Notes under the pieces: generated by a model
Database searches by the model: none
Seen by the model: only the letters and a program-made list of their open reading frames with translations
What the model was told of the DNA's origin: nothing
Shown: one piece after another, positions 5,101 to 49,933 of the stretch
How positions within the stretch are numbered: position 1 is the stretch's first letter
Layout of the letters: each line of letters begins with the position of its first letter
DNA from: Escherichia coli
Lineage (GTDB): Bacteria; Pseudomonadota; Gammaproteobacteria; Enterobacterales; Enterobacteriaceae
Reading direction: 5' to 3' (one strand)
Length of the DNA stretch: 64,000 bases
NCBI RefSeq assembly: GCF_003991155.1
Contig: NZ_CP031294.1
Position numbers and translations under genes: made by a program

Positions 5101-6735
5101 CATCTGGCTGCCTGCGCCAACTACCCCCATGATCCCTGCTCGCATCAGTTTGAACGCAACCATCGCGGCCACGACCTTACCGAGATTAATTACCAGCTCT
5201 TGGTTCTTTGCTAACCATTGAGCAAGCTGACGCAACCCATCGATTGCCGTCGTTAACCCCGAGCCTAAAGAATTGGCAAACGAAATCCCTTCGGCGCTAT
5301 TCATGATTGAAGCCAGTTCTTTCATCCCCTTCGATAGAGAATCCAGATATCCGGCCTGACCAACCCGATCAGCAAATAACGTGAATGACGTCTGAAGTTG
5401 CGCCAGCGCACCTGTGTAGGTTTGCATCATGTCTTTCGCTGCGTTCTCATTCTCCGCACGCAGACCAACAAACATCAGAGACAACGCCTGTTTTGCCTCA
5501 ACCGTACCGCTGGCAACGGCTTTAGTCAGTTCCCCCATAGTGATGCCTGCGGCGTCTGCCATTGCCTGCATCGCGTTAGGAACGGCTTCACCTAATTGCT
5601 GACGTAGCTCTTCCATTGACACAACGCCCTTACCGGACATCTGCTGAACGGCCACAGCCGCACGTTTCAACAGCTCACTATCACCACCAAAACGAGCAAC
5701 GGAGTCCACCAGCGCCTTCAGAGAACCATCGGTTGGATCTAAGCCAGCAGAACGAAACTTCACGAAGGAATCTGTTAACGCCTGCATCGCGAACGGCGCA
5801 TTTTGCGCCATGTCTACGATGTACTTCATATCATCAGCGGCAGCCTGGCCCGGGTTGGACTTCTCCTTATTCAACCCTCGAAGCATCACCCGCATACGTT
5901 CCATTTCGGCCGCAGCTTCAACAATAGGCTTCTGCCACCCAAACATGATGTCAGTAACCGTTCTGGCTGCATCTCCGATCTCGCCAAGCAGGAAAATGTT
6001 GCCACGAAGGCCAGAGAACATACCTCCTTCGTTACTTTTACCGCTATGGCCAGAAGCGCCGCTACGCCGCCCGCTACCACCATCGCCACTTCCAGATGTA
6101 CGAACGCGTACCGGCTTGCTAATCAGTTGCTGACGTCCGATAACTTCGTCCATCTGCTCACGAACCTTTTTCAGTCCCTCGGCAGCCTGACTCGTTGTGA
6201 CACCCCAATTACTGAGTCGCTTCGTCGTGGTATTAAGGCGCGTATTCATGCCACTCACGGACGCAGAGGCTTCTTTGGCCTCCGTACCAAAGCGGCTTGC
6301 GCTTTTGCTTGCATAGGTCGCCCAATCAGAGAAATCATTTAGCTCTGATTGCACTTTACGTAATGACGCGGTGAGTTTATCTACTGAAGAAGTTGTCGTA
6401 TCGACGCGCTCAATCAGGGCTTTAAGACCAGAATTGAGGCTGGTGATGTTGCCACGCATTTTACGCGTAGCATCTGAAGCAAGCTCAAAACCGGCAGCTA
6501 CATCCTGTAGTTTATCTGCCGTAGAATCGAGCTTGCTTTCCAGAACGCCAATGATACGGGCGACCGAACCCAAAGAGCGTTCAAAGGTTTGGATTTTTTG
6601 AGCAGGCTTTGTTACCTGCTCACCAAATCGAGTAAGCAGTTTCCCCGCACGATCGATTGACGCTGTAAACTGTTTGTCTTCCAGCGACAGGATAAACTCT
6701 ACGTTTTGTGACATTCCCTTGTCATCCTCTGCCAA
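2143..6735 (-). CDS. tail tape measure protein
   Basis: 1530-aa ORF, long alpha-helical/coiled-coil Ala/Gln-rich regions, hydrophobic segments, located between G/GT chaperone and M/L/K genes. Confidence 0.85.
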   Translation of the reverse strand: MAEDDKGMSQNVEFILSLEDKQFTASIDRAGKLLTRFGEQVTKPAQKIQTFERSLGSVARIIGVLESKLDSTADKLQDVAAGFELASDATRKMRGNITSLNSGLKALIERVDTTTSSVDKLTASLRKVQSELNDFSDWATYASKSASRFGTEAKEASASVSGMNTRLNTTTKRLSNWGVTTSQAAEGLKKVREQMDEVIGRQQLISKPVRVRTSGSGDGGSGRRSGASGHSGKSNEGGMFSGLRGNIFLLGEIGDAARTVTDIMFGWQKPIVEAAAEMERMRVMLRGLNKEKSNPGQAAADDMKYIVDMAQNAPFAMQALTDSFVKFRSAGLDPTDGSLKALVDSVARFGGDSELLKRAAVAVQQMSGKGVVSMEELRQQLGEAVPNAMQAMADAAGITMGELTKAVASGTVEAKQALSLMFVGLRAENENAAKDMMQTYTGALAQLQTSFTLFADRVGQAGYLDSLSKGMKELASIMNSAEGISFANSLGSGLTTAIDGLRQLAQWLAKNQELVINLGKVVAAMVAFKLMRAGIMGVVGAGSQMVSTFATMATAIQTPFNLGATAVTRFNRAARMGLAPIPSLIFAIRGAITGLKGAFAGLTAFIAANPIGAAFTVATVAVAGLITYMTMLRSETSKVVDEIRKIPEAMTAAKRAQMADRAEKLEKQILADQRALKTGEGVNYVSNSAGVITHKESKADIEARLKKNQEEYQKITGTIALGDGAVAKRLAKEAAESQIEKIRAENQIFAATFVKARQEALDKIQKINDDGSLSDDEKNKLLAPLRETVNKSYLEPAQKLVDSLSSRKNATEKQIATLNDQLEKAKKDGNTEQIQKLQGSIRGYQEHLEAVAQELTQAEFERDNAAKTGKGVMSNQGTVLGLGTTDKAAQKALAQYMRNQMDSATYQRTLPDGTPMMDFEGKPIIGPKQLKTQLNLQKASSASSLEKMSDEERAAAIAALTKAREQDAAAAEKAAQRSANASQRAAKKEQAAQQKLAAGYQKALDKADQLMGQMGESSKATVSFDQSLRDTTKSLTDLANAVPNEFITQEMIDKAKKRLEDLKNATPEYREMFNRRNVEQMISTWAPEADSIISAGYTPSREEKVADFEDTYNRNLKALIELRDKASDPKVVALYTKKINQLIAAGNTALIKETGTATQKLALEYENLAEQIESTWTDLFSGLTDVLTDFVINGKMSFSSLSQSILKDITNMVVKSQITLPLMNMLGMGTTAAGSSQSGNLLTGVASAVANQGVRISNTVNGDKSVGEATKETSSSVTGLGQTTQQTTSAIGTATNAIGSWVSGLFNSTEAKDAETKAVKDSIFSMQNLSSVTGALSAAFAMLGANASGSGNKWLNFGATVASGLVSVWAGGGFDGLMSGSSGSTSGFNNLTSSAADGTNGIPAIPKFANGGIFGKDGVIPLRAYQKGGIANSPQLALFGEGDMNEAYVPLPDGRTIPVTLSTDGMSGGGNVLSPVSIEINVHSDGSTTESGDTESIWNNAAQRMKAIALETIAQEKRPGGSLNPNTQRN

Positions 6736-7108
6736 ATATTTGCATCAGTTGCTCTTTGGCGTCAGGGTCTGCCTTATCCTGGCTTGGATCGTAGACTTTA
6801 TCTGTTACGACTGGTCTTCCAATCCTGAGTTGCAAACCCTCCATGAACGCCTTCACAGCCTCGCCATCCGCCTGGGACGCACGAGCGACTTGTAAGTTGC
6901 GGACATCCTCTTCCGCACGCAGACGGTCTATATTGCGACTGAGCATCCAGAACATCGTGAGAGGAACGTTCAGTAGCTCTAATGGCGACACGGCGTAGTG
7001 AGCAACTACACGACTGAAATAGAATCCGAGATCTATTGAGACGGTCCTTGTCCCGGATTCATCGCGGGAAATTACTTTGCCCCTTCGCCAGCCGCTTTTT
7101 CGTTTTCT
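6722..7108 (-). CDS. tail assembly chaperone T-frame extension (putative -1 frameshift product GT)
   Basis: Frame is -1 relative to G ORF, open from 7108 down to stop at 6722, overlaps G 3' end and tape measure start; canonical arrangement upstream of tape measure. Confidence 0.5.
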   Translation of the reverse strand, partial: RKRKSGWRRGKVISRDESGTRTVSIDLGFYFSRVVAHYAVSPLELLNVPLTMFWMLSRNIDRLRAEEDVRNLQVARASQADGEAVKAFMEGLQLRIGRPVVTDKVYDPSQDKADPDAKEQLMQIFGRG

Positions 7109-7389
7109 TCATCAATCACTTCCATAGCGAAGGTGAAGATCTGCTGGAGTTGCGGAACAGTCAGTTTTTCAAGAACTTCGTCAGGTACTGAAGGGATAAC
7201 CTTACGAACCAGATCTGCATAAGCTGTCACTTGCTCAACAGGAGACATGTTCATGAGATCTTTGCCTTCCATCTGCTTGATGGAAACGAACAGACCTACC
7301 GTCATTTCAACGATGGGATATTCCTGACCGCCAAATTTGATGCTTTTCTTCGGAGGCAGAATGGAATCGAGATCGAGTAATTTGGTCAT
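7072..7389 (-). CDS. tail assembly chaperone (gpG-like)
   Basis: 105-aa acidic protein between major tail protein and tape measure genes; overlapped by -1 frame ORF. Confidence 0.6.
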   Translation of the reverse strand: MTKLLDLDSILPPKKSIKFGGQEYPIVEMTVGLFVSIKQMEGKDLMNMSPVEQVTAYADLVRKVIPSVPDEVLEKLTVPQLQQIFTFAMEVIDEENEKAAGEGAK

Positions 7390-7444
7390 TGGTTAAAATC
7401 CTTTTAAAAGAGAGGCCCATCCTGAGCCTCTGCTTAATTACTGA

Positions 7445-8191
7445 TTAATCTGCGGGGTTAATCGTTACTGACTTAGTTGCCTTCTTACCACCGCTATTGC
7501 TGGTGAAGGAGATATTTGTAGAACCCTGCGCCACACCACGTACCAGACCCGTTTGATCTACCGTGGCCTTTTCCTGGTCTTCGGATTCCCAAACACCGGT
7601 TTTGTCTGCGGCATCAGCTGGAGTGATTTCGGCTGTCAGTTGCACAGTTTCTCCAGCTTTTACGGTTGGAGATTCCGGTGAGATCGACACAGTTTTTACC
7701 GGTTTAGGACCGCTCATTTTGCCCAGAACGCCTTCATCATCCGGGTATGCGCTGAACTGAACAGAGAACACACGAACATCATCAGACTGGTAGGTCATAG
7801 TGAAGTTGCCCGCGGTTGCCGCTTTCGGGATGGTCAACACATAGTCGGTGGTGTCCTGCGGAGTCAGAACCAGCTCCTTCGCCACATCAATCAGGTTAAC
7901 GCCCTGTGCAGATGTGATCGTGACAGAGTTGTCATCTTCGCTCAGAGTAGAACCAGGCATCAGGTCAACCATGTTTTGGAGTACAGACTCAGCCAGAGGC
8001 GCGGTGATGGTAATGTTGCGCCCCTGAACTAATTCGGAAATTACGGTCTGCCCCAACTGATCGACGGTGACTTTCAGCGTTTCAGTGGCTACTTCAACCT
8101 GAACACCACCTTTGGTGTAACCCAAATCCACACCACCAAACGACACCTTACAGGCACCAAGTTTGATGTTTTTTACATGGGTATTAGACAT
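7445..8191 (-). CDS. major tail protein with C-terminal Ig-like (Big_2) domain
   Basis: C-terminal segment ...VKAGETVQLTAEITPADAADKTGVWESEDQEKATVDQTGLVRGVAQGSTNISFTS is a Big_2-type Ig fold as in lambda gpV; start set at ATG 8189-8191 which has AAGGAG RBS (ORF track start 8227 lacks RBS). Confidence 0.7.
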   Translation of the reverse strand: MSNTHVKNIKLGACKVSFGGVDLGYTKGGVQVEVATETLKVTVDQLGQTVISELVQGRNITITAPLAESVLQNMVDLMPGSTLSEDDNSVTITSAQGVNLIDVAKELVLTPQDTTDYVLTIPKAATAGNFTMTYQSDDVRVFSVQFSAYPDDEGVLGKMSGPKPVKTVSISPESPTVKAGETVQLTAEITPADAADKTGVWESEDQEKATVDQTGLVRGVAQGSTNISFTSNSGGKKATKSVTINPAD

Positions 8192-16512: not shown

Positions 16513-17144
16513 TATTCGTCCTCCCCTTCACTTCCATCATCTGTCGCATCAAATTCGCTTAGAGCTTCTTCTTCCAACGTCTCAAGCAATTCGTCATCGA
16601 TGATTTCAGGCTCGTCGTCTTCCTGACGTAATTTCGCCACCTGGGAAGGCGTAAGCTCACCAAATACCAGGTTCGGAATTTCTTCCTCGTCATTTTCCGC
16701 ATGATCCATGCCCAATGCTTTGGACGAAACTTCAAAGCATTTTGCAAGGGTATTACTGGCTCTCTGTAAGCTCTTGAGAGAATCCTCAATCGCCCCTAAA
16801 GGCTTACCCTCACGTTTGGCCGTAGTGACTTCGACCATCACCATCTGCCCCAACGCATACGCCCAGCCGTCATAACGTGTACGACGTTCTTCTATCTTTT
16901 CCGCACGGGCTTTAGCGCGAAGCTCTGCGTCAGATTTAAGAGACTCACGAACCATCTTCCCAACAGAGTCCGCGCCTTTCTCTAATCCTCGCTTTTTGAA
17001 ATGTCTGGAGAGTGTTTCACGACGAATGCCGTACTCTTCCTCCAGCTTTGAGAGTGTATATTCGCCTGACGTCCATTTGGCTTCAGCTTCGGCCCACTCC
17101 GCTGGTGTCAGGCGAGTTTTTACCTCGTCTTTTTCGACCGTCAT
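16512..17144 (-). CDS. terminase small subunit (candidate)
   Basis: 210 aa, N-terminal HTH-like region, acidic C-terminus, 1-bp overlap with TerL start. Confidence 0.6.
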   Translation of the reverse strand: MTVEKDEVKTRLTPAEWAEAEAKWTSGEYTLSKLEEEYGIRRETLSRHFKKRGLEKGADSVGKMVRESLKSDAELRAKARAEKIEERRTRYDGWAYALGQMVMVEVTTAKREGKPLGAIEDSLKSLQRASNTLAKCFEVSSKALGMDHAENDEEEIPNLVFGELTPSQVAKLRQEDDEPEIIDDELLETLEEEALSEFDATDDGSEGEDE

Positions 17145-17256
17145 AGATCCCTCTAAAACACACAGAGCGCGTCCATGCGCTCTAAAACAACTTGTTTACT
17201 GCATCTGCTAACCAACTTGTTTTCTGGGGTGTTTAATTAGGTCTGGCATGTCTTAC

Positions 17257-17316
17257 GAAGCCTGCTTCCGTATATATTTAATAAGTTACTTATTATTTAT
17301 ATATACAGATGCAGGT
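17257..17316. promoter_or_regulatory. hairpin-flanked AT-rich intergenic element (copy 1) upstream of terminase operon
   Basis: Arms cctgcttccgtatatat / atatatacagatgcagg flank palindrome aataagttacttatt; near-identical copy at 47551-47610. Confidence 0.5.
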
Positions 17317-17339
17317 CTTTAAATAAGCTCCCAGACCGA

Positions 17340-17606
17340 TTACATCACCAGTAACTTCGCTTTGGCTCGACCTAAAGTGGTTAACCCAAGAGTCCGGCGG
17401 TGATAGCGATTGTCACTGCGTTGGCGCGTATGCCCTTTCTCCACCAGCCCCTTTTTTATCAGAGCGCGAATTGAGAACTGGATACTTTGCTTGGTTGTCT
17501 TGTACGGCAAAACTTCAAGCAATTCGTCCAGGTCAAGTAGATGACCTCGCTCATAACCGAGATTGAGCGTTTTGATGATGTCCTTTTGTTTGTCGGTTAA
17601 CGTCAT
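17340..17606 (-). CDS. small DNA-binding protein (winged-helix-like), hypothetical
   Basis: 88 aa, basic, helix-turn-helix-like segment; last gene of ParB/ATPase operon. Confidence 0.35.
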   Translation of the reverse strand: MTLTDKQKDIIKTLNLGYERGHLLDLDELLEVLPYKTTKQSIQFSIRALIKKGLVEKGHTRQRSDNRYHRRTLGLTTLGRAKAKLLVM

Positions 17607-17615
17607 GGCAAATCC

Positions 17616-18506
17616 TTATGCCGGTAAAGCAATTTCTAACGGTTTATCCAAAGGTTGTTTGTCGAATGCCAGCAGTGGCAGCGTGTCAGGCAGTCGACGG
17701 CCAAAGTCAGGGTTTCGGTACACACCATACAACGGAGACGTAAAGCTCAGGTTGTGAATGTCCTTGAGCAGCTTCACAATGCTGGCCTCGTCCACCAGAC
17801 TGTCGGCAATGTCCTGAATCGTCGTGCCACGATTCCGCCCAGCTTTTGCCAGGGAACTGTTCTTATGGTAGTCCGCCACCAAATCGCGCAGCGCACGGCG
17901 ACGACGAGACTCGCTCATAGCGAACAACTCTTTGACGATCGCCTCGTTATCACCCGGGTCGGAGCGGAAATGGCGCTGGAACACACGCAGTGCACTTTCA
18001 TAGCTCTTCGGTCGCTCAGGGCGGATGAACTTAAACCCTGCTTTCATGGCGAAGGGATTGTATTTGCTCATCGAGGACTGGATCTCAATGATTGGCCGGT
18101 CATGCATCCTGCTAACCAGGTTAATCATTCTATAAGAGACGCCTACGCCACGATACTGAGTATCCACAACTGAGCGACTGATCACCGCAAAGTTGTTATT
18201 CACGTACCGACCCCAGTACTGGTTAGCCACGGTGGTATTAGTGGTTGGTTTCAACTTAGGAAACATGCGGTGGCGAGGTGCCAACAGTAGTTTCGGGTAA
18301 GCCATAACCACGACGCCCACCAGACGGTCATCAAGTTCGCAGCGATAGTAAGTTGGCGCGAAAGGTTTGCCGTCTGTTTTGTAGTGAAGCGACTTAAGAG
18401 CGTGCCAGTCCTCTACAGTTCCCTTTGTAACAGTCATTCGCTCCAGAAAGTCCAGATGACGCGGAAACTCTTCAGGGCGGTAGCGTTTAATGATGATGTC
18501 CGTCAT
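17616..18506 (-). CDS. hypothetical protein with possible GNAT-like acyltransferase motif
   Basis: 296 aa; segment VVDTQYRGVGVSYRMINLV resembles GNAT motif A (Q/R-x-x-G-x-G/A); weak. Confidence 0.3.
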   Translation of the reverse strand: MTDIIIKRYRPEEFPRHLDFLERMTVTKGTVEDWHALKSLHYKTDGKPFAPTYYRCELDDRLVGVVVMAYPKLLLAPRHRMFPKLKPTTNTTVANQYWGRYVNNNFAVISRSVVDTQYRGVGVSYRMINLVSRMHDRPIIEIQSSMSKYNPFAMKAGFKFIRPERPKSYESALRVFQRHFRSDPGDNEAIVKELFAMSESRRRRALRDLVADYHKNSSLAKAGRNRGTTIQDIADSLVDEASIVKLLKDIHNLSFTSPLYGVYRNPDFGRRLPDTLPLLAFDKQPLDKPLEIALPA

Positions 18507-19168
18507 GAATGGACCTCATCATGACTACCATTGTGATATTCCACCTTCACGCGTTCTTTGTAGTGCTTGGTGATCTGCATATCAGGGCGCAGCGCGTTCT
18601 TCAGGTCTTCGTGAGTCGTCGCCACCATTACCGTCGCACCAACCTTTCGAGCGGCACGCTGGAGGTTAGACGCCACAACCTGAGCGGTTACACGGTCGAG
18701 AACAGCGCCGAACTCGTCAGCAGCCCATACTTTAGCGCCTGACTCAATCAGTTTGGCAATCTTGAGACGATATTTCTGGCCGTCTGACATTTCAGAAGGC
18801 TTGCGAACAAACAGATATGCATCGTTCAGACCAGCCATAGATAACAACCCAAGCGCATCACTGGTCGTTTTGCCCAACTGATCGATGACGTTAACCTCAT
18901 TATCGAAGGTAAAATCATCGATGGAGGCTACAGACAGCCCTTCATCCTTCATCTGTCGTTGCAACTCGCGCAGCACAACGGATTTGCCGGAACCGGATTG
19001 GCCGGTGATGTACACCACATCGCCCTGCTTCACTTCCAGCTCCAGATTGTCGTAAAGCGTCCACTCTTTTTCGTCCAGGCCAAGCCCGAACGACTCAGCG
19101 ATTTCCAACGTGCGCGTGGTTTTATTTACGCGTGTCTGAAACGATACGTTGATGATGTATTTGCTCAT
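18503..19168 (-). CDS. ABC-type ATPase (stand-alone nucleotide-binding domain)
   Basis: Walker A GQSGSGKS, signature-like SDGQKYRL, Walker B VWAADEF, H-loop ATTHE. Confidence 0.6.
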   Translation of the reverse strand: MSKYIINVSFQTRVNKTTRTLEIAESFGLGLDEKEWTLYDNLELEVKQGDVVYITGQSGSGKSVVLRELQRQMKDEGLSVASIDDFTFDNEVNVIDQLGKTTSDALGLLSMAGLNDAYLFVRKPSEMSDGQKYRLKIAKLIESGAKVWAADEFGAVLDRVTAQVVASNLQRAARKVGATVMVATTHEDLKNALRPDMQITKHYKERVKVEYHNGSHDEVHS

Positions 19169-19866
19169 GCAGCCATCTCCCCGGAAGAGATCTTCTCCGC
19201 ATATGCCACAAATGCGTCTACCCCGCTTTCTCCCGTCATTTCTTCCATATGGGCAAGCAAATCACCAACAACAATGGCAGAGCCAGCAGGGAGCGTTTTA
19301 AAGCCCAATACGTCGACAACACGTACTTCTTCCGCTGCAACTTCACGACTGATCTCGGTGTGTTCATCCTTCTGTCGTTTAGTTTCTTCGCCAAGATCGA
19401 TAACTAGCGAGTCGGTGTCCATTTCTTCTGTCATACTGCCAACGAGAACATTCAACTCACGCTCTTCAAAGCCGAAAACCTCGATATCGTCCAGAACAAG
19501 CGACTCAAGCTCTTTCTGTAGCTTAATTGCATCGTAATCAATGCTGGCAAGTCGGTTATCTTCAAGGCGCTTCGCACGAACCTCGTCATCACTGAGATCA
19601 TCGCGAACAATAACCGGTACGCGCTCAAGTCCAGCAAAAATTGCAGCCTCACGGCGGCCGTGGCCAGTAATAATTACGTCGTTCTTATCGACCGTAATTG
19701 GCTGGTCAAATCCGCGCTTTTTAATGGCTGCGGCTAGATCTCGGATCTGCTGTTCATCATGCTTTTTGGCATTCATCTCATAGGGAATAAGATCTGCCGG
19801 GTCGCGATATACGATTTCAAACTTTTTGGTCATTACATACGCTCCTTGTAGTAGTCGACCAGCCAC
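19165..19866 (-). CDS. ParB-like nuclease domain protein
   Basis: N-terminal ParB/Srx-type motif ITGHGRREAA; acidic C-terminus. Confidence 0.55.
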   Translation of the reverse strand: MAGRLLQGAYVMTKKFEIVYRDPADLIPYEMNAKKHDEQQIRDLAAAIKKRGFDQPITVDKNDVIITGHGRREAAIFAGLERVPVIVRDDLSDDEVRAKRLEDNRLASIDYDAIKLQKELESLVLDDIEVFGFEERELNVLVGSMTEEMDTDSLVIDLGEETKRQKDEHTEISREVAAEEVRVVDVLGFKTLPAGSAIVVGDLLAHMEEMTGESGVDAFVAYAEKISSGEMAA

Positions 19867-20531
19867 ACCAGAGCCTCACCAGCGTTCTCCATTTCATTAC
19901 CGGTGTTAATAGCCTGCTCTTTGATGATGTTTTTTATGGTTTCTGCAACACGATCTGACGCATCGAAAGTTACTTTGAAGCGCATGGTCTGATGTTCCGC
20001 ACCCACACGTTCGGTTTTCTCTCGTTTGTCGGTATCGACAGGCTCATCACTACCACGAGACAACGCCTCCAGTGCTTCAAGGTCGATTGCCGCCTCTTTT
20101 GCTAAAACCATCGAGATTTCGTCGTCATACGGAGCGATTTCAGACAGTTGATAGTCAAGTTCTGACTGAATTTCTTCAATGAAGCGTTGCAATGCGATTT
20201 GGTCGTCTTCACCGTATCGCTCGTTGTCCACCAGTGACATCTGTTTAGCTACGACATCGCTAATTTTGCCCACAGAAAGCACCGGAACCGTTGAAATTCC
20301 TTGCTCAATAGCAGCACGCCAGCGATGTTCGCCGCCGAGGATTTCAAAAAATCCATCTTCAAGTTCACGAGCCAAAATTGGCTTAAAAAAGCCCAATTTT
20401 TCGATAGAACCTTTCAGTTTTTCAAAATTCTGCGCACCAACCGAATTGGTGTTCCAGGTATTCGGGCGAAGGTTGGCAACATCAACCTGCAAAATCGTGA
20501 TTTTTACATCCATTTTATTGCTACAATCCAC
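19833..20531 (-). CDS. ParB-like nuclease domain protein
   Basis: N-terminal ParB-type motif LGGEHRWRAA. Confidence 0.55.
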   Translation of the reverse strand: MDCSNKMDVKITILQVDVANLRPNTWNTNSVGAQNFEKLKGSIEKLGFFKPILARELEDGFFEILGGEHRWRAAIEQGISTVPVLSVGKISDVVAKQMSLVDNERYGEDDQIALQRFIEEIQSELDYQLSEIAPYDDEISMVLAKEAAIDLEALEALSRGSDEPVDTDKREKTERVGAEHQTMRFKVTFDASDRVAETIKNIIKEQAINTGNEMENAGEALVWLVDYYKERM

Positions 20532-31270: not shown

Positions 31271-31570
31271 TTACCAGTTCCAGCACTCAAGCCCTTCAAC
31301 GACCGGCGCACCACAATCAAAATGTACAGAGTCAAAGCCTACATCAAGTACTTTCTGAATGTTAGCAATCGCGCCTTCGGATATACCATATCGACGCAAG
31401 TCCTCTTTCCAGACATCATCCTGTAACCCAGCGTGGACAATACAACCGCCGTCAATTTGTGAAACCCAATCCAGCTCATTGCTTGCGATCATGAATCGGC
31501 GAGCATCTTCCTCTGATGTATGAGATGAGCTGATCAATGCCACCTGGTAGGCTTGGGTAATGTTCAACAT
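31271..31570 (-). CDS. hypothetical early protein
   Basis: 99 aa, GGAG RBS, motif-A leader at 31583-31617. Confidence 0.45.
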   Translation of the reverse strand: MLNITQAYQVALISSSHTSEEDARRFMIASNELDWVSQIDGGCIVHAGLQDDVWKEDLRRYGISEGAIANIQKVLDVGFDSVHFDCGAPVVEGLECWNW

Positions 31571-31685
31571 TTCAACAACTCCGAAACAATTTGTTTTCTT
31601 ATGTGGCTTATTATCTCAATCAACAAAAGGTAGAAAACAAATTGTTTTAGGGTTTGTTAAAGTCAGAAGGGGTTGTGTCTATATG

Positions 31686-31716
31686 AAAATGCCCAGCGTG
31701 TTGCCGGGCATTGCGA
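31686..31716 (-). terminator. metG rho-independent terminator (candidate)
   Basis: On minus strand gcccggcaacacgctgggca hairpin followed by tttt, just after metG stop. Confidence 0.5.
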
Positions 31717-31731
31717 ACAGAGGTTGTTTAA

Positions 31732-33765
31732 TTACTTAACCTGGTGGCCTGGTTTAGCACCAGCATCCGGGCTTAACAGGAAGATATCTTTCCCGCCGGG
31801 GCCAGCAGCCATCACCATGCCTTCGGAGATACCGAAGCGCATTTTACGCGGAGCCAGGTTAGCCACCATAATGGTGTGACGACCAATCAGTGCCTGTGGG
31901 TCTGGATAAGCAGAACGGATGCCTGAGAAGACATTACGCTTTTCACCACCGAGATCCAGTGTCAGACGCAGCAGTTTGTCAGAACCTTCGACAAACTCCG
32001 CGTTTTCAATCAGCGCCACACGCAGGTCAACTTTGGCGAAGTCGTCAAAGGTGATGGTTTCCTGAATCGGGTCGTCAGCCAGTGGGCCAGTTACCGGTGC
32101 AGCTGTGGCTTTCACTTCTTCTTTGGATGCTTCCACCAGTGCTTCCACCTGTTTCATATCGATACGGTTATACAATGCCTTGAACGGATTCACTTTATGG
32201 CCCAGCAGCGGTTGCTGGATACCATCCCAGGTCAGTTCTGTATTCAGGAATGCTTCTGCACGTTCAGTCAGTTTCGGCAGTACCGGTTTCAAGTACGTCA
32301 TCAGCACGCGGAACAGGTTAATGCCCATAGAGCAAATCGCCTGCAGATCGGCATCGCGTCCTTCCTGCTTCGCCACCACCCACGGAGCCTGTTCATCGAC
32401 ATATCGGTTAGCCAGGTCAGCCAATGCCATGATTTCACGGATAGCTTTACCAAATTCGCGGCTTTCCCATGCTTCGCCAATCACTTCAGCGGCATCAGTA
32501 AAGGTTTTGTACAGTTGCGGGTCAGCCAGTTCGCTTGCCAGCACGCCGTCAAAACGCTTGTTGATAAAGCCTGCATTACGGGAGGCCAGGTTAACCACTT
32601 TGTTCACGATATCGGCATTCACGCGCTGAACGAAATCCTCCAGGTTGAGATCGATATCATCAATGCGCGAAGAGAGTTTCGCAGTGTAGTAGTAACGCAG
32701 GCTGTCGGCGTCAAAATGATTCAGCCAGGTGCTGGCTTTAATAAAGGTGCCGCGAGACTTGGACATCTTCGCGCCGTTCACCGTCACATAGCCGTGAACA
32801 AACAGGTTGGTCGGCTTGCGGAAGTTGCTGCCTTCCAGCATGGCAGGCCAGAACAGGCTGTGGAAGTAAACAATATCTTTACCGATGAAGTGGTACAGCT
32901 CGGCTGTGGAGTCTTTCTTCCAGTATTCATCGAAGCTGGTGGTATCGCCGCGCTTGTCGCACAGATTCTTGAAGGAACCCATGTAGCCAATCGGCGCGTC
33001 CAGCCAGACGTAGAAATATTTGCCCGGCGCGTTCGGAATTTCAAAACCGAAGTAAGGCGCATCGCGGGAGATATCCCACTGTTGCAGGCCGGATTCAAAC
33101 CACTCCTGCATTTTGTTCGCCACCTGCTCCTGCAACGCACCGCTGCGGGTCCATGCCTGCAACATTTCGCTGAAAGAGGGCAGATCAAAGAAGAAGTGTT
33201 CGGAATCACGCATTACCGGGGTAGCGCCAGAAACCACCGATTTCGGCTCGATCAATTCAGTCGGGCTATATGTTGCGCCGCAGACTTCACAGTTATCGCC
33301 GTATTGATCTGGCGCTTTACATTTCGGGCAGGTGCCTTTCACAAAACGATCCGGCAGGAACATGCCTTTTTCCGGGTCGTACAACTGAGAGATAGTGCGG
33401 TTTTTAATAAAACCGTTCTCTTTCAGGCGAGTATAGATAAGCTCAGACAGCTGGCGGTTCTCTTCGCTGTGCGTCGAGTGATAGTTGTCATAGCTGATGT
33501 TAAAGCCTGCGAAATCAGTCTGGTGTTCCTGACTCATTTCGCCAATCATCTGCTCCGGTGTGATACCAAGCTGCTGTGCTTTCAGCATGATCGGCGTACC
33601 GTGGGCATCGTCGGCACAGATGAAATTAACCTCGTGGCCGCGCATTCGCTGGTAACGAACCCAGACATCAGCCTGGATGTGCTCCAGCATATGGCCGAGG
33701 TGGATTGAGCCGTTAGCGTACGGCAGCGCGCACGTCACCAGAATTTTCTTCGCGACTTGGGTCAT
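31732..33765 (-). CDS. metG: methionyl-tRNA synthetase
   Basis: 677-aa product [29 protein letters not shown]... recalled as essentially E. coli MetG (HIGH motif, KMSKS, C-terminal tRNA-binding domain); start at ATG 33763-33765, ORF-track upstream extension rejected. Confidence 0.97.
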
Positions 33766-33922
33766 AGTAGGCATTACTTCTTTGTAGTGAAAAGGGGCTT
33801 GATAGTAACAAAATGGCCTTATGTCTGCCATGTGATAACAGCATTTCTCATAAATGATTAAATGTCGTAGCTGGAGTACACTACAAGGCGACAATTGCGC
33901 AAATTAAAATAAAGGAGACGGG

Positions 33923-35023
33923 ATGAGCGAGTCCAAATCGCCGGATGCCCTGAGAGCAATGGTAGCCGGTACGCTGGCTAATTTTCAGCACCCAACCCTG
34001 AAACACAACCTGACTACGCTTAAAGCGTTACACCATGTTGCGTTGATGGATGACACACTGCATGTCGAACTAATCATGCCTTTCGTGTGGAATAAGCCTT
34101 TTGAAGACCTGAAAGAGCAATGTAGTGGTGATCTGCTCCGTATCACTGGCGCAAAGGCTATTGACTGGAAGCTGTCGTACAACATTGCCACGCTTAAGCG
34201 CGTCAAAAACCAACCAGGCATTAATGGCGTTAAGAACATTATCGCCGTCAGCTCAGGCAAGGGCGGCGTGGGTAAATCCTCCACGGCGGTAAACCTGGCA
34301 CTGGCGTTGGCTGCTGAAGGTGCGAAAGTTGGTATTTTGGATGCCGATATCTATGGTCCATCAATTCCAACCATGCTGGGCGCGGAAAACCAACGTCCAA
34401 CCTCACCTGACGGTACTCACATGGCACCTATCATGTCTCATGGCCTGGCAACCAACTCTATTGGTTATCTGGTCACCGACGACAATGCAATGGTGTGGCG
34501 TGGACCGATGGCCAGCAAGGCGCTGATGCAGATGTTGCAGGAAACTCTATGGCCTGATCTGGACTATCTCGTTCTCGATATGCCGCCGGGCACTGGTGAT
34601 ATTCAGTTGACGCTGGCGCAGAACATTCCTGTAACTGGTGCGGTTGTGGTAACTACGCCGCAAGACATCGCGCTGATCGATGCGAAGAAAGGCATTGTGA
34701 TGTTCGAAAAAGTCGAAGTGCCGGTACTGGGTATCGTCGAAAACATGAGTGTGCATATTTGCAGTAACTGCGGTCATCACGAGCCAATTTTTGGCACCGG
34801 TGGCGCACAGAAACTGGCCGAGAAATACAACACGCAGTTGTTAGGCCAAATGCCACTTCATATCTCTCTTCGTGAAGATCTGGATAACGGAACACCAACC
34901 GTTATTAGTCGTCCAGATAGCGAATTTACGGCTATTTATCGTGACCTCGCAGATCGCGTTGCCGCCCAAATGTATTGGCAAGGTGAAGTAATACCTGGCG
35001 AAATCGCATTCCGCGCAGTGTGA
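33923..35023 (+). CDS. apbC: Fe-S cluster carrier ATPase ApbC/Mrp
   Basis: 366 aa; P-loop SSGKGGVGKSSTAVNLALALA; CxxC motif ICSNCGHHEP; divergent from metG as in Escherichia chromosome. Confidence 0.95.
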   Translation: MSESKSPDALRAMVAGTLANFQHPTLKHNLTTLKALHHVALMDDTLHVELIMPFVWNKPFEDLKEQCSGDLLRITGAKAIDWKLSYNIATLKRVKNQPGINGVKNIIAVSSGKGGVGKSSTAVNLALALAAEGAKVGILDADIYGPSIPTMLGAENQRPTSPDGTHMAPIMSHGLATNSIGYLVTDDNAMVWRGPMASKALMQMLQETLWPDLDYLVLDMPPGTGDIQLTLAQNIPVTGAVVVTTPQDIALIDAKKGIVMFEKVEVPVLGIVENMSVHICSNCGHHEPIFGTGGAQKLAEKYNTQLLGQMPLHISLREDLDNGTPTVISRPDSEFTAIYRDLADRVAAQMYWQGEVIPGEIAFRAV

Positions 35024-35059
35024 TAAAAGGCGGTGCATTGCACCGCCTAATCAGTTCTC

Positions 35060-35449
35060 CTACATCACGGGACAATCATCAAACTCGCCACTTCTTGCGT
35101 CGTTGATAATGTGAGTGATCACACCAAACACGGCATTGCTGCCCGTGCATCCATCGTCATCCTTTGGCAATGCTTCCTTCTTACCGGTTCTTAAATCCTC
35201 CAGATGCTGACGTGGGTACTTCCGGTATCTTTTTACGCGATATTCCCCATCCAGAGCGCATACAAGCAGAGAACCATCAACCGGGGTAAGTGAGGAATCG
35301 ACCACCAGCAATGCACCCTGTAATATTCCCTCACGATGATGACTATCAGCTGCCCTCATGAAGTAGGTCGCTGAAGGATGTCTAATTATCTGCTGATCAA
35401 GAGAAATACGGCTCTCAGCATAATCCGCCGCAGGAGAAGGGAAGCCCAT
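35060..35449 (-). CDS. UmuD/ImpA-like S24 peptidase (translesion synthesis accessory), orphan
   Basis: FPSPAADYAE...HPSATYFMRA...VDGEYRVKRY...AVFGVITHII aligns with UmuD; no umuC-like gene follows. Confidence 0.7.
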   Translation of the reverse strand: MGFPSPAADYAESRISLDQQIIRHPSATYFMRAADSHHREGILQGALLVVDSSLTPVDGSLLVCALDGEYRVKRYRKYPRQHLEDLRTGKKEALPKDDDGCTGSNAVFGVITHIINDARSGEFDDCPVM

Positions 35450-35467
35450 AGCGTTTTCACCTCAGAG

Positions 35468-35487
35468 TACTGTTTATCCATACAGTA
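35468..35487. promoter_or_regulatory. LexA (SOS) box
   Basis: tactgtttatccatacagta = CTGT-N8-ACAG palindrome, 19 bp upstream of umuD-like start. Confidence 0.7.
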
Positions 35488-35547
35488 TACATTAAAGATG
35501 CTTGAAGTGTGCAATAGCGCGATGCTTTGCGCTCGTCTGGTGGCGCG

Positions 35548-35799
35548 TTATTTTTTGGCTATATCTTCTTTCTGATATACCGGATCGTTTCCTTTTGGCA
35601 GCAGGAGGCTTAACTGCCGGTAGTGCCGTAGCCGTTCCATGAAATAGGTGCGCAGGTTCTCAGGTTGCTCACGGGCTACCTGTTCCGCTATGACGGGTAT
35701 GTTCAATCGCTCTTTGTAGGCAACCCCCCTGGCAGCCAGGTCAACGTTAACTTTATTCCTTTCTTCCTGGCTTTTGGCTGCTATGTTCCAGTTGCTCAT
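35548..35799 (-). CDS. small hypothetical protein upstream of umuD-like gene
   Basis: 83-aa ORF; no confident family assignment. Confidence 0.35.
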
Positions 35800-36151
35800 G
35801 TTTAAGGCTCACATTTCCAGATGGTATTCTGAACACCCGTACCAGGCGCAAGATGAGGGTTAGCGTTCGCGCTATGCAGATATACAGCTTTAGACTTTCC
35901 GTATTGCTGACAGGCTTTATCTGCGTTTTTTGGCAGGCTATCCAAGCCAATACCAGCCATCGAACTGGATGCTAACCTTTTCACCGTCATTGTATTGCAC
36001 CATCGCACACCCAGACATAGCTAAAATCGCACCGACAATACCGCTTTTCCAAAAAGCTCTAATTAGGTCATTCGTTACCTAATGTCCGAACTGCTAAAGC
36101 ATCCAAGTTGCTGTAGAATCACATCCAATTACTTAAACCTGAAATAAGTGG

Positions 36152-37710
36152 ATGAAAATGACAAGTATTCAACAACGTGCAGAGCTTCATCGCCAGATCT
36201 GGCAAATTGCTAACGATGTCAGGGGTTCAGTCGATGGATGGGATTTTAAGCAGTACGTTTTGGGCGCGCTTTTTTACCGTTTTATCAGCGAAAATTTTTC
36301 CAGTTATATTGAAGCCGGTGATGACAGTATCTGTTATGCGAAACTGGATGACAGCGTAATTACTGATGACATTAAAGACGATGCCATCAAAACTAAAGGC
36401 TACTTCATCTACCCCAGTCAGCTTTTCTGCAACGTAGCTGCGAAAGCAAATACTAATGACAGACTGAATGCAGATTTAAACAGCATCTTCGTTGCTATCG
36501 AAAGTTCTGCTTACGGTTATCCTTCAGAAGCTGACATCAAAGGTTTGTTTGCTGATTTCGATACCACCAGTAACCGCCTGGGTAACACCGTTAAAGATAA
36601 AAATGCCCGCTTGGCTGCGGTTCTGAAAGGGGTTGAAGGGCTAAAACTTGGTGACTTCCATGAACATCAGATTGACCTGTTCGGTGACGCCTATGAGTTC
36701 CTGATTTCTAACTATGCGGCGAATGCCGGTAAGTCCGGCGGCGAGTTCTTTACACCGCAGCACGTCTCTAAGCTGATTGCACAACTGGCTATGCACGGGC
36801 AGACCCACGTTAACAAAATCTACGACCCGGCAGCAGGCTCCGGTTCGCTGTTGTTGCAGGCGAAAAAACAGTTTGATGACCATATCATCGAAGAAGGTTT
36901 TTTTGGTCAGGAAATCAACCATACGACCTATAACCTGGCGCGTATGAACATGTTTTTGCACAACATCAACTACGACAAGTTTGATATCAAGCTGGGTAAT
37001 ACACTGACTGAGCCGCACTTCAGAGATGAAAAACCGTTTGATGCCATCGTTTCTAACCCGCCGTATTCGGTGAAATGGATTGGCAGCGATGACCCGACGC
37101 TGATTAACGATGAACGTTTTGCCCCGGCTGGCGTTCTGGCCCCCAAATCCAAAGCTGACTTTGCGTTTGTATTACATGCGCTGAACTATCTTTCGGCCAA
37201 AGGTCGCGCTGCGATTGTCTGCTTCCCAGGCATTTTTTACCGTGGCGGCGCGGAGCAGAAAATCCGTCAGTATCTGGTCGACAATAACTATGTCGAAACC
37301 GTGATTTCACTGGCACCGAATCTGTTCTTTGGCACCACTATTGCCGTCAATATTCTGGTGCTGTCTAAACATAAAACGGATACCAAAGTTCAGTTTATTG
37401 ATGCCAGCGAACTGTTCAAAAAAGAGACTAACAACAACATTCTGACCGATGCTCATATCGAACAGATTATGCAGGTATTTGCCAGCAAGGAAGATGTTGC
37501 TCATCTGGCGAAATCTGTTGCGTTTGAGACTGTTGTCGCGAATGACTATAACCTGTCGGTGAGCAGCTATGTGGAAGCGAAAGATACTCGCGAAATTATC
37601 GATATCGCTGAGCTGAATGCTGAGCTGAAAACCACGGTCAGCAAAATCGACCAGTTGCGTAAAGATATTGATGCGATTGTTGCTGAGATTGAAGGTAGCG
37701 AGGTACAGGC

Positions 37711-37714
<4 letters not shown>
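36152..37714 (+). CDS. hsdM: Type I restriction-modification methyltransferase subunit (Type IC, EcoR124 family)
   Basis: 520 aa; N-terminus [26 protein letters not shown] recalled as EcoR124-family HsdM; AdoMet motif [10 protein letters not shown]; NPPY catalytic motif. Confidence 0.95.
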
Positions 37715-38970
<1,256 letters not shown>

Positions 38971-39091
38971 TTGACCATTGCTACCGACCGGATCACCTTA
39001 ACATCCGGTCTATATAGAGACTATTTTTTACACGCCGGAAGTCGCCCTTAAAGCCCTTCCGGCCCTTGCCAGACGGCACAAAGGATGCGCT

Positions 39092-42000
39092 ATGACTCAT
39101 CAGACACACACCATTGCTGAATCCAATAACTTTATCGTTCTTGATAAGTACATCAAAGCCGAGCAAACAGGCGACAGCTACCAGAGCGAATCGGACCTGG
39201 AACGTGAACTGATTCAGGATCTGCGGAATCAGGGCTATGAATTTATTTCCGTAAAATCTCAGTCGGCGATGCTGGCCAACGTTCGGGAACAGCTTCAGAG
39301 CCTCAATGGTGTGATGTTTAATGACAGCGAGTGGCGGCGCTTCACGGAGCAGTATCTGGACAACCCCAGCGATGGTATTCTGGATAAAACCCGTAAAATC
39401 CATATCGACTATATCTGCGACTTTATTTTTGACGACGGGCGACTTGAGAACATCTATTTGATAGATAAAAAGAATCTCATGCGCAATAAGGTGCAGATTA
39501 TCCAGCAGTTTGAACAGACGGGTTCTCATGCTAACCGTTATGACGTCACGATCCTGGTTAATGGTTTACCGCTGGTGCAAATCGAACTAAAAAAACGCGG
39601 GGTGGCGATTCGTGAGGCTTTCAACCAGATACATCGTTACAGTAAAGAGAGTTTTAACAGCGAAAATTCCCTGTTTAAGTATCTGCAACTGTTTGTCATT
39701 TCTAACGGCACCGATACCCGTTATTTTGCCAACACGACAAAGCGCGATAAAAACAGTTTTGACTTCACCATGAATTGGGCGAAATCAGACAACACGCTGA
39801 TTAAAGACCTCAAAGACTTTACCGCTACCTTTTTCCAGAAACATACTCTGCTGAATGTTCTGGTGAACTACAGCGTTTTTGACAGTAGTCAGACGCTACT
39901 GGTGATGCGACCGTACCAGATTGCCGCCACCGAGCGCATTCTGTGGAAAATTAAGAGTTCCTTTACAGCGAAGAACTGGTCAAAACCGGAAAGCGGTGGG
40001 TATATCTGGCATACTACCGGTTCTGGTAAAACCCTCACCAGCTTTAAAGCCGCGCGTCTGGCAACAGAGCTGGACTTTATTGATAAAGTCTTCTTTGTGG
40101 TCGACAGGAAAGACCTCGATTACCAGACCATGAAGGAATATCAGCGTTTTTCGCCAGACAGCGTCAACGGCTCGGAAAATACCGCAGGCCTTAAACGAAA
40201 TCTGGATAAGGACGATAACAAAATTATCGTCACTACTATTCAGAAACTCAATAACCTGATGAAAGCAGAAAGCGACCTGCCTGTATATAATCAGCAAGTG
40301 GTGTTTATATTTGATGAATGCCACCGCAGCCAGTTTGGAGAAGCGCAGAAAAACCTGAAGAAGAAATTCAAACGCTATTATCAGTTTGGTTTTACCGGCA
40401 CCCCTATTTTCCCGGAAAACGCTTTAGGCTCAGAAACGACCGCCAGCGTATTTGGTCGTGAATTGCATTCGTATGTAATTACCGATGCGATTCGTGATGA
40501 AAAAGTGCTCAAATTCAAGGTGGACTACAACGATGTGCGGCCACAGTTTAAATCTTTAGAGACAGAAACCGACGAGAAAAAACTGAGTGCGGCTGAAAAT
40601 CAGCAGGCATTTCTTCATCCCATGCGTATACAGGAAATTACGCAATATATTCTGAATAACTTCCGCCAGAAGACCCACCGTACTTTCCCAGGTTCCAAAG
40701 GCTTTAATGCCATGCTGGCAGTGAGTAGCGTGGATGCCGCGAAAGCCTATTACGCGACGTTTAAACGGTTACAAGAGGAAGCAGCTAATAAATCGGCTAC
40801 CTATAAACCGCTGCGTGTTGCAACAATCTTCTCCTTTGCCGCCAATGAAGAACAAAATGCCATTGGTGAAATTTCCGATGAAACTTTTGATACCAGCGCA
40901 ATGGACAGCAGTGCTAAAGAGTTTCTTGACGCTGCAATTCGTGAGTATAACAGCTATTTTAAAACTAACTTCAGCACCGACAGTAACGGTTTTCAGAACT
41001 ACTATCGTGATTTAGCCCAACGGGTTAAAAATCAGGATATCGATCTGTTAATTGTCGTTGGGATGTTTTTAACCGGCTTCGACGCTCCAACATTGAACAC
41101 GCTATTCGTCGATAAAAACTTGCGTTTTCACGGCCTGATGCAGGCATTCTCCCGTACCAACCGCATTTATGACGCTACTAAAACCTTCGGTAACATCGTC
41201 ACTTTTCGGGATCTGGAACGCTCAACCATTGATGCCATAACGCTGTTTGGTGATAAAAATACTAAAAATGTGGTGTTAGAAAAGAGTTATGCTGAGTATA
41301 TGGAAGGCTTTACAGATGCTGCCACTGGTGAAGCTAAACGCGGCTTTATGGCAGTAGTTTCAGAACTGGAACAACGGTTCCCTGACCCTGCCAGTATTGA
41401 AAGTGAAAAACAGAAGAAAGACTTCGTAAAACTGTTTGGTGAATACCTGCGTGCCGAGAACATCCTGCAAAACTATGATGAATTTGCCACGCTGAAAGCC
41501 CTGCAACAAATCGATCTTAGCGATCCTGTTGCGGTAGAAAAATTCAAAGCAGAACATTATGTGGATGATGAAAAGTTCGCTGAATTGCAAACAATTCGTC
41601 TCCCTGCTGAACGCAAGATTCAGGATTATCGTTCTGCCTATAACGATATTCGCGACTGGCAGCGCCGTGAGAAAGAAGCTGAGAAAAAAGAGAAATCAAC
41701 CACTGACTGGGATGACGTAGTTTTTGAGGTCGATTTGCTGAAGTCTCAGGAAATAAACCTGGATTATATCCTTGGACTGATTTTCGAACACAACAGACAA
41801 AATAAAGGCAAGGGCGAAATGATCGAAGAGGTCAAACGCTTAATTCGTTCAAGCCTGGGGAACCGGGCGAAAGAGGGCCTGGTGGTCGATTTTATTCAGC
41901 AAACGAACCTGGATGATTTACCAGACAAAGCCAGTATCATTGAGGCATTCTTTACGTTTGCTCAACGCGAACAGCAACGTGAAGCAGAAGCATTGATAAA

Positions 42001-42208
42001 AGAAGAAAATCTCAATGAAGAGGCGGCGAAACGCTATATTCGCACGTCTTTAAAACGCGAATACGCCACCGAAAATGGCACAGAATTAAACGAGACATTA
42101 CCAAAACTTAGTCCGTTAAACCCGCAATATAAAACGAAAAAACAGACCGTTTTCCAGAAAATCGTCACGTTTATTGAAAAGTTCAAAGGAGTAGGTGGGC
42201 AGATATAG
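39092..42208 (+). CDS. hsdR: Type I R-M restriction endonuclease/translocase subunit
   Basis: 1038 aa, same length as EcoR124I HsdR; SF2 helicase motifs (GSGKT, FDECH), N-terminal nuclease region. Confidence 0.95.
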
Positions 42209-49378: not shown

Positions 49379-49933
49379 TTACACAATTTCAGAGGGTAAT
49401 TTAAAAAGTCCGTACTTATTACGTGCCTTAAAGAAGCATTGCATCATTAAGTTTGTGTCATATAAGGCACTATGTGCTTTAGTATGATCGTACATAAAGC
49501 CAAGAGAGAAGGCCAACTCTTCAAGGCGGGGACGTTTACCGTCTTCTGTGGCCCACAGGGAAAATAGAGTGTCAATCAATGGGATGTCTGGAAGCGAAAA
49601 ACCGTAACTTTTCAGCTCATGCCTAATAAACGGAATATCGAACGCTTCGCCGTTGTGGGCTATCCAAATATCGGAAGAAGAGAGATACGAAGCGACAGAT
49701 GAAGCGTGATCGGCTAGTAACGGCTCGGCGGCTAAATCTTCAAGACTGATGCCGTGTACCGCTTGCGCTTTCGGATCGATACTGCGACGCGGGTTGAACC
49801 GCATTACAAAACTATCAACCATTGTCTGTGTCTCCAGTTCATAGCGGGTAATTGCGATTTCAATAATTTTATGACCAGCAAGGAAATCCAGTCCCGTAGA
49901 CTCGATATCGATGCCTGCAACAATCGTTGTCAT
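49379..49933 (-). CDS. DnaQ-like 3'-5' exonuclease (DEDD family)
   Basis: Exo I GIDIESTG, Exo II AHNGEAFD, Exo III HSALYD. Confidence 0.8.
   Translation of the reverse strand: MTTIVAGIDIESTGLDFLAGHKIIEIAITRYELETQTMVDSFVMRFNPRRSIDPKAQAVHGISLEDLAAEPLLADHASSVASYLSSSDIWIAHNGEAFDIPFIRHELKSYGFSLPDIPLIDTLFSLWATEDGKRPRLEELAFSLGFMYDHTKAHSALYDTNLMMQCFFKARNKYGLFKLPSEIV

Follow-up and report, generated by a model that had tools for sequence, protein, structure and literature searches.

A probable humD gene, encoding a UmuD′ homologue without a umuC partner, at the edge of metG-apbC cargo on an SSU5-like phage-plasmid of Escherichia coli

The window analysed here, a 64-kb stretch of Escherichia coli DNA (64,000 nucleotides), belongs to an SSU5-like phage-plasmid. 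Its tail, capsid, portal and terminase genes are 97% identical to those of plasmid pCP53-113k, identity to this plasmid is 99.7% at positions 31271-38352, and the segment 35024-36151 is 100% identical in pCP53-113k and in many E. coli plasmids of about 110 kb. On the minus strand of this segment lies a 129-codon open reading frame with an ATG start, humD (35060..35449), which encodes an S24-fold protein of the type of the UmuD′ accessory subunit, without a cleavable N-terminal arm. Directly upstream, on the same strand, is a homologue of hot (35548..35799, minus strand, 83 aa), a gene for a DNA polymerase III theta subunit homologue. Downstream, humD converges with apbC (33923..35023, plus strand), the product of which matches the ApbC equivalog model at 759 bits. 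The apbC stop codon ends at 35023, 36 nt before the humD stop at 35060; the distance of 37 bp given in the first-pass annotation was right in substance but one nucleotide too long.

The humD product scores 37.9 bits against Pfam Peptidase_S24 (cut-off 23.3) and 219.8 bits against the HumD equivalog model, NCBIfam NF051876 (“HumD family translesion DNA polymerase”, cut-off 120), on which it aligns end to end (protein residues 1-129 to profile positions 1-129 of 129). It also matches PHROG 811, “UmuD-like”. An identical protein (100%) is encoded by Escherichia phage Cyrano, the record of which is 108 kb long, and another in RefSeq, on plasmids H9, H11 and H15, is already named “HumD family translesion DNA polymerase”. 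Identity is 91-93% to the HumD proteins of P1 (91%), P7, RCS47 and D6, and about 68-69% to gp26 of N15. A PADLOC defence-system search matched neither HumD nor Hot. Comparison with P1 humD gives a dN/dS of 0.05 (dN 0.042, dS 0.80), so the gene is live and under strong purifying selection. In all likelihood, then, it is humD, the phage-borne, umuC-less umuD′ homologue first described in bacteriophage P1, carried here by an SSU5-like phage-plasmid. The HumD family, its umuC-less state, its control by LexA and its capacity to replace UmuD′ have been known since 1999, and the exact protein has a name in RefSeq. The difference from P1 is one of context only: an SSU5-like host element, a missing lxr gene, and apbC instead of phd-doc downstream.

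The architecture of the protein is that of a processed subunit. Residues 25-139 of K-12 UmuD align with the humD product from its residue 2 on, and HumD residue 2 pairs with Gly25 of UmuD and, in a PDB comparison, with residue 1 of the UmuD′ crystal chain 1UMU. In an alignment of UmuD with 23 HumD-family proteins from Escherichia, Salmonella, Citrobacter, Klebsiella, Enterobacter, Kluyvera and Trabulsiella, every HumD-family protein (23/23) starts with M-[GA]-FPSPA at the Cys24/Gly25 cleavage site of UmuD. The self-cleavage site itself, an Ala-Gly or Cys-Gly in the N-terminal arm or linker, is missing, only Met preceding the Gly that follows the UmuD scissile bond. The window gene is not a umuD damaged at either its N- or its C-terminal end; what it encodes is the processed UmuD′ form itself.

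Two features of the protein are not explained by a simple UmuD′ role. One is K73, the equivalent of UmuD Lys97, which is invariant across the aligned family even though self-cleavage would be unneeded; the position of Ser60, occupied by Ser in the window copy, has Ser or Thr in the family as a whole and lies in a degraded GDSM nucleophile motif. The other is a HumD-specific C-terminal octapeptide, EFDDCPV[MIL], which is nearly invariant in the aligned family and has no counterpart in UmuD. The octapeptide is encoded by the last eight codons of humD (35060-35086 in the window) and occurs also in L004, L005, L008, L012, L016, L021 and L024. Across nine loci the codons change synonymously while the peptide is retained. 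An AlphaFold2 model of HumD built from a 24-sequence alignment was poor (mean pLDDT 52.7, pTM 0.40) and was left unused, so the model does not decide between a free and a docked tail.

A LexA operator (SOS box), TACTGTATGGATAAACAGTA, is located at 35468..35487 on the minus strand, 18 nt upstream of the humD ATG rather than the 19 first reported, and agrees with the 20-mer LexA consensus at 17/20 positions. Nothing else in the 64-kb window comes within three mismatches of the consensus, and 100 dinucleotide-preserving shuffles yielded no such site. The loose pattern CTGT-N8-ACAG occurs twice in the window against about one expected, which is not significant alone. The original description of a LexA-boxed, umuD-like S24 peptidase gene is thus borne out by both the Pfam match and the uniqueness of the box. 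Furthermore, a LexA box stands at the equivalent place before humD in P1, P7, N15, Cyrano, L012-L014, L021 and L024, and ahead of a two-gene operon, rather than of humD itself, in L008 and L016. All the other contexts examined thus keep the box before humD or this two-gene operon, also those with unrelated flanks. In the P1 and P7 records the box is annotated as a LexA site regulating humD, and humD has been named as a LexA-regulated SOS gene (PMC9603915).

The remaining control signals are predictions of differing quality. A putative sigma-70 promoter, TGCACA and TATACT with an 18-nt spacer (35484..35513, minus strand), was found by a consensus scan with 9/12 matches. The scan does not rise above chance, with one site found against 2.0 expected, and the predicted -35 hexamer is weak. 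The elements TTGCAC and TRTACT are kept in P1 and P7, and the predicted -10 hexamer reaches into the LexA box, sharing its first four bases. A ribosome-binding site, GAGGTG (35458..35463, minus strand), can be read from the sequence 8 nt before the ATG and is likewise kept in P1 and P7. Downstream, a candidate intrinsic terminator at 35022..35048 (minus strand) consists of a 9-bp G+C-rich stem, AGGCGGUGC/GCACCGCCU, with a 3-nt loop followed by UUUAUC; it folds at about -20 kcal/mol (ViennaRNA) and overlaps the apbC stop codon. The hairpin is assigned to humD because a U-run follows the stem on the minus strand only. It had been missed by a simple terminator scan, which needs at least 5 T. A terminator-like site at 35528-35547 was considered as a hot terminator and rejected, being on the plus strand, the wrong one for hot, and at chance level (one found, 1.1 expected). 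No clear terminator was found between hot and humD in the window, so read-through from hot could give LexA-independent expression of humD. Taken as read from the DNA, humD is a self-contained cassette with predicted promoter, operator, ribosome-binding site and terminator.

No polymerase gene accompanies it. A tblastn search with E. coli K-12 UmuC found nothing in the 64-kb window (best E 3.5), and nothing residual at 35000-35100, where a remnant had been proposed as a check. The same search of the complete 113.6-kb plasmid pCP53-113k also found nothing (best E 0.74), so the absence of a Y-family partner noted at the outset holds for the window and for this complete relative. Nor was any Y-family (IMS-family) polymerase gene found beside the humD homologues in eight other kinds of element examined. 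The host can supply the partner: umuC is present in 5422/5426 complete E. coli genomes, nearly always on the chromosome. The umuC-less state is normal for the HumD family.

The neighbourhoods of humD differ from one element to another. The order is hot, lxr, humD, phd, doc in P1 (NC_005856), and similar in P7. It runs hot, humD, phd, doc in L024, a P1-like element of Salmonella, and hot, lxr-like gene, humD, DUF4145 gene in L021, of another SSU5-like plasmid lineage. In N15 the order is tail-fibre gene, gp26, annotated terminator, sopB, and in N15-like Klebsiella elements it is divergent dinI, humD, sopB. In P2-like prophages of Citrobacter and Trabulsiella, a LexA box is followed by an 80-aa ORF and humD. 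This conserved ORF (phrog_3893; 4756-4998 in L008, 4760-4999 in L016) lies directly before humD with the box upstream of the pair, and in the Citrobacter prophage a divergent dinI homologue is under the same box. Between Cyrano and the window, identity collapses just upstream of the humD start codon, and a different LexA box is present there in Cyrano; no hot homologue was found in the 20-kb locus around Cyrano humD. These arrangements indicate that humD moves between elements as a cassette of approximately 0.45 kb with its own controls. A published account places hot-lxr-humD in a variable region of P1-like phage-plasmids (PMC9603915), and a 2025 bioRxiv survey of phage-plasmids makes no mention of humD, umuD, metG or apbC. 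The DNA on the hot/hsd side of humD is variable. Beyond hot, positions 36152-42208 of the window hold a complete type I restriction-modification system (hsdM, hsdS, hsdR), with an hsdS product of 419 aa as opposed to about 439 aa in pCP53-113k. This system is absent from the 20-kb Cyrano humD locus, where Ea22-like genes lie upstream of humD.

The product of the hot homologue matches Pfam DNA_pol3_theta (PF06440) at 107.9 bits (gathering score 34.6), P1 Hot (PDB 1SE7/2IDO) over 83/83 residues with an E-value of 9e-45, and HolE with an E-value of 3e-18. Its gene is 89.9% identical to P1 hot at the nucleotide level (35790..35563), with a dN/dS of 0.11. A separate block of DNA similarity to P1, 35498..35061 (85.6%), comprises humD and a 49-bp control region. 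In P1 the 573-bp lxr gene lies between the two, and it is absent in the window. The same lxr-less hot-humD tandem is found in the Salmonella P1-like element, which is collinear with the window over 36055..35061 at 76%. The lxr gene (“LexA regulated function”, about 190 aa, phrog_6164, no Pfam family; 2838-3410 in L005) parts hot from humD in P1 and one SSU5-like lineage, and is cleanly absent from the window (35499-35562) and from the Salmonella element. Upstream of hot, a 68-aa ORF at 35802-36008 matches phrog_7757 only from residue 16 on. It is the counterpart of an 88-aa ORF in L021 and L024, and may be 5′-truncated or mis-started in the window.

Other replication genes are found on these elements. 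Besides the Hot homologue, the window encodes a 3′-5′ exonuclease of the DnaQ/RNase_T type at 49379-49933 (PF00929, 83.8 bits), and pCP53-113k (L017) also encodes a DnaE alpha subunit (16818-20324), a DnaB-like helicase, a primase and a ligase. The theta subunit stabilises the proofreader of Pol III. The alpha, epsilon-like and theta-like proteins amount to a Pol III core-like set on one phage-plasmid, and the partner of Hot may be the exonuclease encoded by the element and not the epsilon of the host.

On its downstream side, humD faces a mosaic joint at 35024..35059, between a metG-apbC cargo (31731-35023) and the humD cassette. DNA similarity to K-12 metG-mrp extends over 31731..35019 (88.2%) and stops at the ends of both coding sequences, while P1-like humD homology starts at 35061. 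The backbone homology of L021 spans hot and humD, breaks off past the humD stop and picks up again at 31655, a short way past metG; in that relative the metG-apbC slot is filled by a DUF4145 gene. On these grounds metG-apbC is captured chromosomal cargo, and humD is part of an older hot-(lxr)-humD accessory module common to P1-like and SSU5-like phage-plasmids. The first-pass annotation had correctly sensed a junction here but had drawn it inside the cargo block, whereas it is the edge of that block against the hot-(lxr)-humD module. Protein identity to K-12 is 98.8% for MetG and 94.8% for ApbC. Both are housekeeping genes, intact on this phage-plasmid, and their similarity to K-12 suggests that they were taken from a related enterobacterium and have since been under strong purifying selection. 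Outside the window, pCP53-113k carries a yehD-type fimbrial cluster at 2816-7737, with IS1 and IS3 on its flanks. The yehABCD genes adjoin mrp-metG on the K-12 chromosome, a hint that the piece captured from a chromosome was larger at first and underwent rearrangement afterwards.

The mechanism proposed for humD starts from what is observed at the locus, namely the family membership, the N-terminal architecture, the conserved operator, the absence of umuC, the purifying selection and the module boundaries. By analogy with the 91%-identical P1 protein and with pol V biology, the window HumD would be subject to LexA binding at its operator, would partner UmuC and would have the corresponding phenotype. 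In the undamaged cell, host LexA on the operator overlapping the -10 hexamer would block transcription of humD. After DNA damage, RecA-stimulated self-cleavage of LexA would derepress humD together with the chromosomal umuDC operon. RecA-dependent cleavage of UmuD normally delays the activation of polymerase V. HumD would be translated ready-made as UmuD′, with Met before the equivalent of UmuD Gly25, and would skip this slow step. A HumD dimer, host UmuC and RecA filaments could then form a pol V-like translesion polymerase, which would copy damaged DNA, the element's own included, at the cost of mutations. P1 HumD reportedly restored mutagenesis in recA430 lexA(Def) cells and is said to have bound both UmuC and RecA filaments in vitro. 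The P1 protein is also said to be poorly expressed and to complement well only when its gene is on a high-copy plasmid; bulk mutagenesis may thus not be what it naturally serves. The note on humD in the P1 record reads “functionally complements E. coli UmuD'”, and the title of McLenigan et al. (1999, J Bacteriol 181:7005) presents P1 HumD as a UmuD′ substitute.

A different origin for the gene was proposed initially, that of the truncated edge of a plasmid mutagenesis operon, in which humD would be what is left of a umuDC-, impCAB- or mucAB-type operon after the polymerase gene was deleted when apbC joined. The gene does abut a real mosaic joint and umuC is indeed not present, but the N-terminal 24 residues of operon-type UmuD, MucA and ImpA are missing, with the start at the cleavage site throughout the family, and the autoproteolytic pol V subunit model gives the product 87 bits, short of the 110 required, where the HumD cut-off is far exceeded. 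Moreover, umuC-less, LexA-boxed units of this kind occur in P1, P7, N15, Cyrano and prophages with unrelated genes downstream, the humD stop is followed by a terminator of its own and then by convergent apbC, and no leftover similarity to UmuC lies nearby or in the rest of the window. With a full-length HumD, a complete unit, a low dN/dS and umuC-less relatives, truncation fails as an account of the locus and is extremely improbable; the window copy is an intact, ordinary member of a family in which the missing umuC is normal. Scarcely credible, too, is an origin from a LexA-like or CI-like phage repressor, of which the ORF would be the C-terminal S24 domain left on its own. Several NCBI homologues are named “LexA family transcriptional regulator” and the LexA model gives a weak match, but at 27.2 bits this is well short of its cut-off of 111, the solved structures closest in sequence are without exception UmuD or UmuD′, HumD-family proteins agree in length and at both ends, and neither a DNA-binding domain nor a remnant of one was found upstream of humD. 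The value of these results is for annotation, in that the truncated-operon reading is corrected and the true boundary of the metG-apbC block is placed; they carry little weight as a discovery.

A further reading concerns what HumD does for its element. It could be a real, expressed UmuD′ look-alike whose chief task is to bend the host damage response to the needs of the phage, not to switch on translesion synthesis, and it might do this by binding RecA filaments, by titrating UmuD or UmuC, or by offering its conserved acidic tail to SSB-tail-binding proteins as a decoy or an adaptor. The tail EFDDCPV[MIL], conserved at the protein level through synonymous changes, resembles the acidic tip of E. 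coli SSB, MDFDDDIPF, although the similarity is that of a short motif only. Prophage humD is often divergently paired with a dinI homologue that shares its LexA box, and DinI modulates RecA; in phage-plasmids, humD is paired with hot. P1 HumD is also said to complement weakly at natural expression levels. Against this reading, the P1 protein is on record, in its database note and in the title of McLenigan et al., as complementing UmuD′, and a main function other than translesion synthesis is unlikely. A narrower idea, drawn from the same motif and to be regarded as a long shot, is that EFDDCPV[MIL], which UmuD′, MucA′ and related proteins lack, may act as a short linear motif in imitation of the acidic SSB tip DFDDDIPF. 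If this were true, the phage would make a UmuD′ with its own handle on the SSB-tail binders (chi of the clamp loader, RecQ, ExoI, PriA and Pol IV). HumD would then be more than a pre-cleaved UmuD′ and, with the adjacent theta homologue, would form part of a phage toolkit that rewires the host replisome after damage.

As a humD gene, the window copy can be set beside several known systems. The mucAB, impCAB, rumAB and samAB operons of mobile elements also specify a LexA-controlled S24-fold accessory protein for a Y-family polymerase, but they encode a cleavable precursor and their own polymerase, and window humD encodes neither. N15 gp26 and the UmuD-like genes of N15-like and P2-like prophages belong to the same family (67-75% identity) and are likewise standalone, LexA-boxed, terminator-followed and located at the edge of tail or partition modules; the neighbour of these N15- and P2-type genes is a divergent dinI or an upstream 80-aa ORF, not hot. 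E. coli UmuD′ (PDB 1UMU, 1I4V, 8GMT) is of the same fold family, with about 42-44% identity over UmuD residues 25-139, and HumD keeps the GFPSPAADY start, the equivalent of Lys97 and, in the window copy, that of Ser60. UmuD′ arises by RecA-stimulated cleavage of a 139-aa precursor encoded in an operon with umuC, whereas HumD is made directly and outside such an operon, has a degraded GDSM motif and carries an extra 10-residue C-terminal tail. P1 humD lies in a P1-like element, with a divergent lxr between hot and humD and with phd-doc downstream, whereas the window gene lies in an SSU5-like element without lxr and with convergent apbC, and the LexA boxes of the two differ at 3 positions. In other respects the P1 gene is like the window gene: its product has 129 aa, is 91% identical, opens with Met-Gly where UmuD is cleaved and ends in the same C-terminal tail, and the gene itself has a LexA box 18-19 nt upstream, a similar promoter and ribosome-binding site, no umuC, and hot nearby.
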